The translations under genes were made by a program, and so were the position numbers. 64,000 bases of DNA from a virus. Location of the stretch: IMG/VR virus record IMGVR_UViG_3300031088_000734. One strand, written 5' to 3'. The notes beneath the pieces are model-generated. The model was not told the DNA's origin. It did not search any database and worked only from the letters and a program-made list of their open reading frames with translations. Each line of letters begins with the position of its first letter. The stretch's first letter is position 1. Below are positions 26,093-27,645 of this stretch, one piece after another.

Positions 26093-26137
26093 TTGATTGC
26101 TTCGTTTCTTTTTGCTAGAATGGCTACATTGAATGAG
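26093..26137 (+). promoter_or_regulatory. Stable-RNA promoter with conserved leader
   Basis: TTGATT-17-TAGAAT, then CTACATTGAATGAG. Confidence 0.7.
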
Positions 26138-26169: not shown

Positions 26170-26272
26170 GTGGATGTGTGAGCGTAATAGGAGAGTTGGC
26201 CCTCCGTCCTTGAATAAAGGTTACTCTACTGTTGTATTGGTAACGTAGGTTCAAATCCTACCATCTGCACCA
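26170..26272 (+). tRNA. Aberrant tRNA-like RNA (degenerate Ser-TGA-like), CCA retained
   Basis: GTGGATG/CATCTGC acceptor plus ACCA; GTAGG-TTCAAAT-CCTAC T arm; long variable arm TTAC/GTAA; anticodon arm poorly paired; about 11 extra nt before D-like hairpin GGAG-agttggcc-CTCC. Confidence 0.65.
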
Positions 26273-26313
26273 AATTGCTTGATTGTTGTGATGGATTGTG
26301 GTATAATCATCAC

Positions 26314-26555
26314 AGCAAACGAATTAGGAGCCTTCGTCAAAGAAGGTTGGATAGCAGCGGTGTCGCGGGCGAGCTATCACGAAAGGTGAGGAATACTCCC
26401 TTTCATAGTAACAAAGTCCATCGGGGTGTTTTCTGCCTTTGATTAAAACGCTTGGGTGAAGCGGTTCTTTGTTACGAACTTATTTGTCAATTAGCGAAGG
26501 AATTATAGTCCTAGTGGCTATGATTAAAACGGTTGGGTGAACTGGCCTTCGTTAA
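26314..26555 (+). ncRNA. Unassigned structured RNA, unit 1 (5' domain plus two tandem 3' domains)
   Basis: Promoter TTGATT-17-TATAAT (26279..26307); GATAGC-agcggtg..gggcga-GCTATC; two TGATTAAAACG-x-TTGGGTGAA three-way-junction domains at 26408..26475 and 26491..26555. Confidence 0.65.
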
Positions 26556-26605
26556 GACCAATTTTAAAGGTTGTTATTTACAGGCGTTTGATGTATAATA
26601 GCGAC

Positions 26606-26776
26606 ATGTTAAACGAATACGGAGCAGCAGTTAAATGTTGCTGAATGGTAGCGGTGGTCGGGCGAGCCATTGTTTGAAGGAGAGGTGATTTCTTAGTCCC
26701 TCTCTTAGCAACAAGGGAATTGAGATGTTGTTGGTCTTGATTAAAACGGTTGGGTGAACCGGCTCTTGTTGCAAAC
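26606..26776 (+). ncRNA. Unassigned structured RNA, unit 2 (5' domain plus one 3' domain)
   Basis: Promoter TTGTTA-17-TATAAT (26571..26599); AATGGT-agcggtg..gggcga-GCCATT; GCAACAAG/CTTGTTGC closing the TGATTAAAACGGTTGGGTGAACCG domain; terminator-like AGTTGTT-aaat-GACAGCT plus T run after. Confidence 0.65.
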
Positions 26777-26836
26777 CCTATTCCAAAGAGTTGTTAAATG
26801 ACAGCTTTTTTCTTTTTAGCAGTGATGGAGATTGTC

Positions 26837-27064: not shown

Positions 27065-27235
27065 TTGGTGAATACTCAATTTATTGAGGTCGTAGGCTAG
27101 TCCCTTCTTCACCAGCCAGATTTGCTGTAGGCTCTTGTAGCCTGTCCGACCGGGTTGTGACCGGGCAGCACCAGACGGTGCCCACCTAACAGTGGAGTCG
27201 ATATGGCGTAGGTAATCGGTTCCTATTGCAGCAAT
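27065..27235 (+). ncRNA. Candidate multi-branched structured RNA
   Basis: GC-richer than flanks; TGGTGAA/TTCACCA, TTGCTGTA/TGCAGCAA, TAGGCT/AGCCTG, GCACC-agac-GGTGC, CCAC/GTGG, CGAC/GTCG. Confidence 0.45.
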
Positions 27236-27325
27236 GAAATTATTAACATTATTGAGAGATTCTTATGCCGACATACGAAAAAATCTGGACACGATTATAA
27301 AATGTTAGCCCTAGGAGGGTCAATT

Positions 27326-27487
27326 ATGTCTAGAAGTGTAAAAGGTAGTAAAGGTTGTGGTTATGAATACTGGTCTAAACGTCCTATGTGCTATTCTTCT
27401 CCCGGTCGTTGGGCGAAGCAAAAATGCCATAGAATTGAAAGACAACATGACAAAGAGTTAATCAGAACTGAACTCAAAGATCTTTGA
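27326..27487 (+). CDS. Small basic protein (53 aa)
   Basis: GGAGG RBS; MSRSVKGSKGCGYEYWSKRP...KCHRIERQ. Confidence 0.7.
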   Translation: MSRSVKGSKGCGYEYWSKRPMCYSSPGRWAKQKCHRIERQHDKELIRTELKDL

Positions 27488-27489
27488 GT

Positions 27490-27645
27490 GGTTCTTACAG
27501 AGCAAGACCTGCATTAAGCGAAGACTGGCAGCTTGATACGGGATTTATACCGGCCCAGCGGAGTAGTGGAGTGATAGGTGTATGCCTTGACCTTAGAAGC
27601 GATAATCTTCGGTGACTTGGTGGTGGAAAAAGATAAACCACATAG
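27490..27645 (+). ncRNA. Candidate structured 3' UTR RNA
   Basis: ATTAAGC/GCTTGAT (27513/27537), GGTTCTT/AAGACC, GTGG/CCAC; ends at terminator 27649..27675. Confidence 0.35.

Follow-up and report, generated by a model that had tools for sequence, protein, structure and literature searches.

Large phages encode stable RNAs alongside their tRNAs. For example, the T4 species 1 and 2 RNAs (rnaC and rnaD) and the T5 RNAs RNAI, III, IV, 1, 2, 2H, and 3 are structured molecules of 100-250 nt encoded among tRNA genes, and these stable RNAs of the T4 and T5 tRNA clusters are still annotated as unexplained. A different group is formed by the protein-titrating sRNAs of the CsrB/RsmZ and GlmY type, which expose several short conserved loops on variable stems, are present in multiple copies and are bounded by a promoter and a terminator. 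Another mode of action is that of the HK022 put RNA, which suppresses downstream terminators by means of the beta-prime zinc domain. Structurally, put is composed of two hairpins with one G between them (PMC9378689). Finally, tRNAs, aminoacyl-tRNA synthetases and RNA-repair enzymes form a repertoire that has been described in jumbo phages as a response to attacks on translation (PMC7824862). Judged from its sequence, the 64,000-nt stretch of DNA analysed here (the window) holds two adjacent genes for a folded non-coding RNA, with three reusable modules in all, that can be compared with these systems.

Layout and folding of the two RNA units

Unit A (26314-26560) and unit B (26606-26815) lie on the plus strand, each behind its own predicted promoter, and together comprise two "head" and three three-way-junction (D) modules. 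Every coordinate and stem quoted in the original prediction is present in the sequence; overlooked at that first reading were the fixed size of the first hairpin (H1), the bulged U or UU of the third (H3), a probable closing stem, and the terminator-like hairpin of unit B. Two TG-extended sigma70 promoters had also been proposed. Both are of the sigma70 type by consensus match (10/12 matches each, with 17-nt spacers), but only promoter A (26279-26307) has the extended -10 TG, which is missing from promoter B (26571-26599). The position of promoter A is kept in L003, L007, and L012, and that of promoter B in relatives.

In unit A, the 5' leader (26317-26328) is the probable 5' strand of a closing stem formed with the tail after D1, a pairing that was judged from folds and by eye and that covaries weakly. 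The head follows, made of hairpin H1 (26329-26348; 7 bp and a 6-nt A-rich loop, of fixed size) and, usually after a single G, hairpin H2 (26350-26378), which has a 6-bp covarying stem, a 1x2 internal loop and a conserved G-rich apical element (AGCGGYG..CGGGC). An alternative register of the H2 apex suits all variants at a cost of 3-5 kcal/mol. Next comes the optional hairpin H3 (26381-26404), with a bulged U before GA(G) and a variable loop, which is missing from L004 units 1-2, L013, and L092; then domain D1 (26408-26475), a three-way junction with a UAAAA strand and a P3 hairpin; and finally D2 (26491-26555), an extra D module added to this unit. Unit B has its leader and head at 26611-26671 (H1, 26623-26642; H2, 26644-26671), an H3 carrying the bulged U at 26677-26706 and one D module, D3, at 26708-26772. 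Its tail (26773-26784) is the probable 3' strand of the closing stem according to the MFE fold and the aligned tails, and the unit is closed by a terminator-like hairpin and U tract (26785-26817), conserved in L003, L007, L135, and L136 and uncalled by a strict terminator scan. The 5' leader and the post-D tail can probably pair and close each unit, on weaker evidence than that for the other stems. The hairpins had been described as variable, which is true of the H3 loop; their geometry is nevertheless conserved, with 7 bp and 6 nt in the first and, in the middle one when full-sized, a bulged U or UU before GA. This bulge geometry recalls arginine-binding bulges such as that of HIV TAR.

The 3' domain had been predicted to occur three times and, in fact, its 20-nt core is found in three copies in the window versus 0.08 expected from shuffles, with no further copy in the rest of the 179-kb record at E<0.2. 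Both units fold better than dinucleotide shuffles (z=-3.3 for A and z=-4.2 for B), and the plus strand folds better than its complement by 24-25 kcal/mol. The D module consists of P1, P2 with a freely varying loop, the UAAAA strand (present in 19/20 unique homologues) and a 5-bp P3, which contains a G.U pair in D2. The P3 loop, first taken for an invariant GGGTG, is so within the window but RGGYG across the 20 unique homologues, among which GGGUG is present in 14, AGGUG in 3, and GGGCG in 3. For the 15 pairs of the head, 180/180 cells are standard pairs and both sides change in 11/15; when the alignment was slid as a control, standard pairs dropped to 28-45%. The claim of covarying stems is also supported by a tree-aware permutation test, with E<0.05 for 7/14 pairs of the head (19 double-change branch events) and 3/17 pairs of D (16 events) and no significant pair outside the structure in either module; these E-values are approximate, since they come from a home-made R-scape-like script run on a hand-anchored alignment. 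The covariation of D is modest because its core is nearly invariant, and in general the stems drift while the single-stranded parts stay conserved. It might be argued that the elements are non-functional relics or DNA-level repeats, and the third domain of L012 is indeed a decayed copy; however, significant covariation, strand-specific folding with G.U pairs and promoters conserved across clades have already largely refuted this explanation, which is now scarcely credible.

Relatives of the RNA and their carrier

Homologues were sought by pattern scans of IMG/VR, JGI metagenomes and GTDB, by protein-led searches and with two covariance models, R1 for the head and R2 for domain D. Covariance-model searches had been suggested from the outset and did find homologues, the total being 17 unique heads and 25 unique D domains. 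Close relatives of the window (L001-L003, L007, L012, L133-L139) have the same layout of two heads and three D. Elsewhere the arrangement is different. For example, three complete units are found in the 437-kb record G001, together with one D that follows a different 5' module, and three heads lacking D and two D lacking a detected head are scattered over five separate places in the 290-kb record G005. By locus, heads without D are seen in L090, L092, L093, and L107, and D without detected head in L009, L067, L084, and L086; in the 46.5-kb contig DJWL01000096.1 (L067 / G009 C124), one head and one D lie 23 kb apart. Stand-alone promoter-element-terminator units are represented by window unit B and by L060, in which D lies 33 nt before the terminator. 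The copy number per record is 2-3 heads and 2-4 D. The RNA had been called modular, and the occurrence of head and D apart from each other in relatives bears this out; as their arrangement suggests, the modules have been reshuffled independently in these genomes. Another observation is that, in L084 and L086 (minus strand), a two-hairpin module lies just 3' of D that is head-like by look and present twice in G005; model R1 gives no match to it.

No family member was found by BLAST in isolate phages and plasmids, where the only matches were to the T-arm. Among five GTDB pattern matches, one is real, on the tRNA-rich 46.5-kb contig, which belongs to a Flavobacteriaceae bin and is probably a misplaced contig of the same clade. 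A further GTDB candidate (L069, E=2e-4) was taken as chance, lying in a GC-rich, coding-looking stretch. Likewise, L005, L006, L008, L010, L011, L015, L017-L022, L070-L074, L094-L106, and most of L108-L119 were set aside as chance pattern matches, rejected by the covariance models or, in the case of L006, L008, L011, and L018-L022, by reading as coding DNA. In the searches made, the family thus appears to be confined to this clade; its narrow distribution and rearranged modules together imply a family that is narrow yet old enough for reshuffling.

The carrier of these RNAs is large. The record of the window is a 179-kb IMG/VR fragment, which over 20,225 bp shows 100% identity to the ENA contig ERZ27247443:k141_1011963 (1,281,823 bp; matching segment L134, 760121-780345); moreover, contigs of 1,859,102 and 1,858,324 bp are on record as encoding two of the window proteins. 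On the ENA contig, a lone DnaK gene lies at a distance of 400 kb, and its gene neighbourhood is common to the DnaK of G001. Related DnaKs (77-78% identical, C-terminal half) are present on contigs of 1.84-1.92 Mb, and those of the relatives that were compared share the DnaK neighbourhood; the closest named DnaKs are gammaproteobacterial (about 64%). From these matches the carrier is read as at least 1.28 Mb, and its size is probably 1.86 Mb. To our knowledge, 1.3-1.9 Mb far exceeds the phage genomes known. The carrier had been described as a phage or plasmid, which is apt for a phage-like mobile element and understated for DNA that assembles to this size.

The carrier has about 31-34% GC and mostly genes without known function. 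Its content includes many tRNAs, aminoacyl-tRNA synthetases, GatAB, a T4-type RNA ligase and kinase, NAD salvage, transporters, paralogous unknowns and DnaK. In G000, G001, and G005, which amount to 0.9 Mb, partly overlapping, and to under half of the replicon, tblastn gave no counterpart of the E. coli ribosomal proteins, RNA polymerase subunits, EF-Tu, EF-G or SecY, and blastn gave no rRNA except a GTPase-centre look-alike. No clear capsid or terminase gene was found in the pieces searched, a weak test (the Gp23 search was silent on controls too). Translation of G000 and of the first 400 kb of G001 under three codes gives ORFs of at most 965 aa, and an alternative genetic code was rejected, long ORFs not being created in the carrier. 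Separately, tRNA genes with the CUA (amber-reading) anticodon are present in G001 (C1 375947-376020) and L067 (3096-3171); TAG is used as stop despite them, and recoding gives no longer ORFs. The signals of the carrier look bacterial, and it could represent a giant phage, a giant element of another kind or an atypical cell, so "phage" is a provisional name for it.

Such a carrier could encode an RNP or RNA machine of its own of which these RNAs are parts, with the partner elsewhere in the 1.9-Mb genome; at the extreme, they would be pieces of a divergent housekeeping RNA of a cell-like genome. This explanation is consistent with the size of the carrier, with its tRNAs, aminoacyl-tRNA synthetases and DnaK, with the SRP RNA of a relative and with the confinement of the family to this clade. 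It also draws on the D junction, which has the same topology as the 23S H42-H43-H44 junction (the L11 site), that is, helix, U-N-A-A-A strand and helix, and which, in sequence and topology only, is identical to 23S 1079-1087 at 6/9 positions with the same flanking A-U and U-A pairs. On the other hand, the pattern recurs at 23S 2560, so the D junction is a recurrent building block, a shared folding motif and not L11-site mimicry; unlike the GTPase-associated centre, D lacks the 1067 and 1095 loop sequences and the H42 kink-turn, and the true look-alike is a separate gene of the same genome and not the D modules. In addition, the translation, polymerase and SecY genes and rRNA sought in the 0.9 Mb are missing, and no flanking protein goes with all copies. 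Taken together, a machine of the replicon itself is quite unlikely. The look-alike is a stand-alone RNA at about 125600-125950 of G000:C1, minus strand (L025), conserved in four records (L024, L025, L026, L027), in which the H43 and H44 loops are split by an insert of 253-269 nt.

Genomic context and possible modes of action

All copies sit within tRNA or ncRNA transcription units. The head starts 6-29 nt after a predicted -10 box in 13/15 cases; several units are followed by a tRNA gene at a distance of 7-100 nt, and others end at a terminator without tRNA. Several further elements have been observed around the window units. Upstream, a tRNA-like gene (26170-26272; promoter 26093-26121) has a CCA end, intact acceptor and T arms and a disrupted anticodon arm, with a variable arm whose length differs among relatives, and gives a partial tmRNA-type match in Rfam (E<=10). 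In L001 (370-540) and L135 (4590-4750), an extra promoter-led tRNA-like RNA lies between this first tRNA-like gene and unit A; it is absent from the window and L007. Downstream, a Y-RNA-like stem (27143-27210, by eye) with a bulged C and without Rfam match is enclosed in a longer closing helix (27120-27235); a 61-aa basic protein (27302-27487) belongs to phrog_7399, which has relatives in phiKZ-like and other jumbo phages and is also found near tRNA genes in G001 and G005; and the 3' end of the island has conserved non-coding elements (27500-27640; L135:5570-5630; L136:3445-3510) with short stretches that recall RNase P RNA motifs by eye and with no Rfam match. In G005, a small SRP RNA (RF00169, 58.7 bits, above cut-off; L093 minus strand, C1 183334-183429) adjoins tRNA-Arg and a head module. 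L093 and L107 have Shine-Dalgarno/start/stop minigenes between promoter and head, similar ones being present in G000, and a Shine-Dalgarno-like GAGGUGA in H3 of unit B was dismissed, having no start codon behind it and being missing from the G005 copies.

The position of the heads close to the promoter and of several units close to a tRNA gene would suit a cis-acting leader, whose modules shield the 5' end, direct the maturation of tRNAs or, in a put-like manner, bind RNA polymerase, carrying transcription through the tRNA/ncRNA units in the latter variant. The head resembles put (PMC9378689) in its two adjacent hairpins, its one-G linker, the internal loop in the second hairpin and its closeness to the promoter, and the 70-aa ORF after unit B, without clear promoter, may rely on read-through. 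Nevertheless, the HK022 early region (NC_002166 26000-38000, where put is unannotated) gave no match to R1 or R2, and no equivalent of the put 5' duplex or triplex was seen. Put requires the G at its junction, a position that in 4/17 heads (G005, L107) is A or absent, and many units terminate 30-180 nt downstream, so nothing is left to antiterminate; the put-like reading fails because of this non-invariant G and these short, terminated units. Moreover, neither window unit is followed by a tRNA. A cis-acting leader is considered unlikely.

The same proximity to tRNA genes raises the alternative that tRNA precursors are trimmed by a ribozyme, self-cleaving or processing, consisting of D or of the whole unit, and a compact three-way junction with a near-invariant core, often just 5' of tRNA genes, would be in accordance with it. 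However, the next tRNA is 9 to 187 nt away, and many copies have none; no known self-cleaving ribozyme consensus was matched by the units (Rfam, E<=10) or by divergent homologues; and among the D homologues the loops have no conserved pseudoknot partner, while loop-tail pairing breaks in L013, L067, L084, L086 and the GGGCG copies. A ribozyme is very unlikely on these grounds.

Exchangeable guide-like loops and an RNA antitoxin had also been put forward, and the corresponding explanation is that the variable loops confer specificity on a base-pairing sRNA, a guide RNA or a type I/III antitoxin. The loops do vary from copy to copy, and the order of unit B (promoter, RNA, terminator, small ORF) resembles type III toxin-antitoxin loci. 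But the variable loops, of 4-12 nt, also differ between orthologues of close relatives and include a UUCG cap, and the longest match elsewhere in the own genome, of 12-13 nt, is equalled by shuffles; the complementarity to own-genome RNAs that was to be checked is thus not seen, and the loops seem to drift neutrally. Type III antitoxin RNAs are tandem pseudoknot repeats of ~35 nt followed by a terminator and a toxin gene, whereas here the repeats are unevenly spaced three-way junctions of 65 nt, and the 70-aa ORF is lacking in four RNA carriers (G001, G005, L012, L013) and has no PHROG family. A pairing or antitoxin function thus hardly seems probable.

Conserved single strands, reuse of modules, copy number and stand-alone units are best fitted by a protein- or RNP-binding stable RNA, and we give about even chances to these RNAs being stable, trans-acting molecules that bind a protein or RNP as a decoy or scaffold. 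We infer that a sigma70-type polymerase would transcribe each of the two paralogous genes from its own promoter, yielding folded RNAs of about 245 nt (A) and about 180-210 nt (B), and that the RNA would be the final product, acting in trans. Rigid, sequence-flexible stems would present short conserved surfaces, namely the G-rich apex of H2, H3 with its bulged U, and the RGGYG hairpin, which the rRNA-type UAAAA three-way junction holds in place. Their ligand would be a protein or ribonucleoprotein, most likely one from the host translation, RNA-processing or RNA-sensing machinery, the bound RNA serving as decoy or scaffold; translation or RNA surveillance is suggested as the target by the host-RNA look-alikes and by the tRNA and RNA-repair repertoire. 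Multiple copies per genome would raise the dose, and units followed closely by a tRNA gene would have their 3' end freed during the ordinary maturation of that tRNA. Two findings speak against a decoy or scaffold. No host RNA copied by the modules was found, E. coli rRNA being matched neither in local alignments nor with the covariance models (the GTPase-centre look-alike, used as control, was detected by local alignment), and many copies lie directly 5' of a tRNA gene, which a cis-acting leader fits equally.

A broader and more tentative proposal, which we find possible and on balance doubtful, is that of bacterial replicons of ~1.9 Mb without ribosomal genes, whose RNA modules and look-alikes titrate or rewire host proteins of translation and RNA surveillance. 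It is similarly doubtful that this class of replicon is an undescribed one with a toolkit made of the head, the bulged-U hairpin, the rRNA-type junction and tRNA-, Y-RNA- and GTPase-centre look-alikes. The carrier may in fact matter more than the RNA, for the same DNA repeatedly assembles to 1.3-1.9 Mb, its accessory genes are phage-like, and the parts examined lack ribosomal and polymerase genes; should this be true for the full contigs, the RNA would mark a class of giant elements that has so far escaped recognition.

Comparison with known systems

The expected absence from Rfam has held, as neither the window feature nor its divergent homologues match any family of Rfam 15 at the gathering threshold, and at E<=10 the units have only chance-level matches far under the cut-off. 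Likenesses to 16S h23, 23S H13, the 16S decoding strand, 5S loop E, group II intron D5, pistol and T-box were considered and were dropped because their scores were not above shuffles or because divergent homologues break them. In the literature, no description of the RNA or the replicon was found, but the family may overlap with the 8495 IMG/VR candidate structured RNAs of Fremin et al. 2023 (PMC10690425). As far as can be told from sequence, this is an uncatalogued and well-supported RNA family that is a member of none of the families tested. With the CsrB/RsmZ and GlmY type it shares the general layout, but its conserved loops are RGGYG and GGYG and not the GGA of sRNAs that titrate CsrA/RsmA, with no Rfam match to them.

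The small, independently folding modules of the family, with well-supported structures and sharply defined conserved loops, offer an experimental entry, so a pull-down with loop mutants could name the partner directly. By analogy, the family is akin to the stable RNAs of phage tRNA clusters: both are structured RNAs of comparable length encoded among tRNA genes, in a large phage in one case and in a phage-like carrier in the other. T4 rnaC and rnaD and the T5 stable RNAs have no sequence or structure match with R1 or R2; T4 rnaC and several T5 RNAs end in tRNA-like arms, whereas window-type units do not; and, in contrast to the T4 and T5 RNAs, the units described here are multi-copy and modular, have their own predicted promoters and reside on a megabase replicon. 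What the present analysis adds is the megabase size of the carrier, together with the independent reshuffling of three modules.
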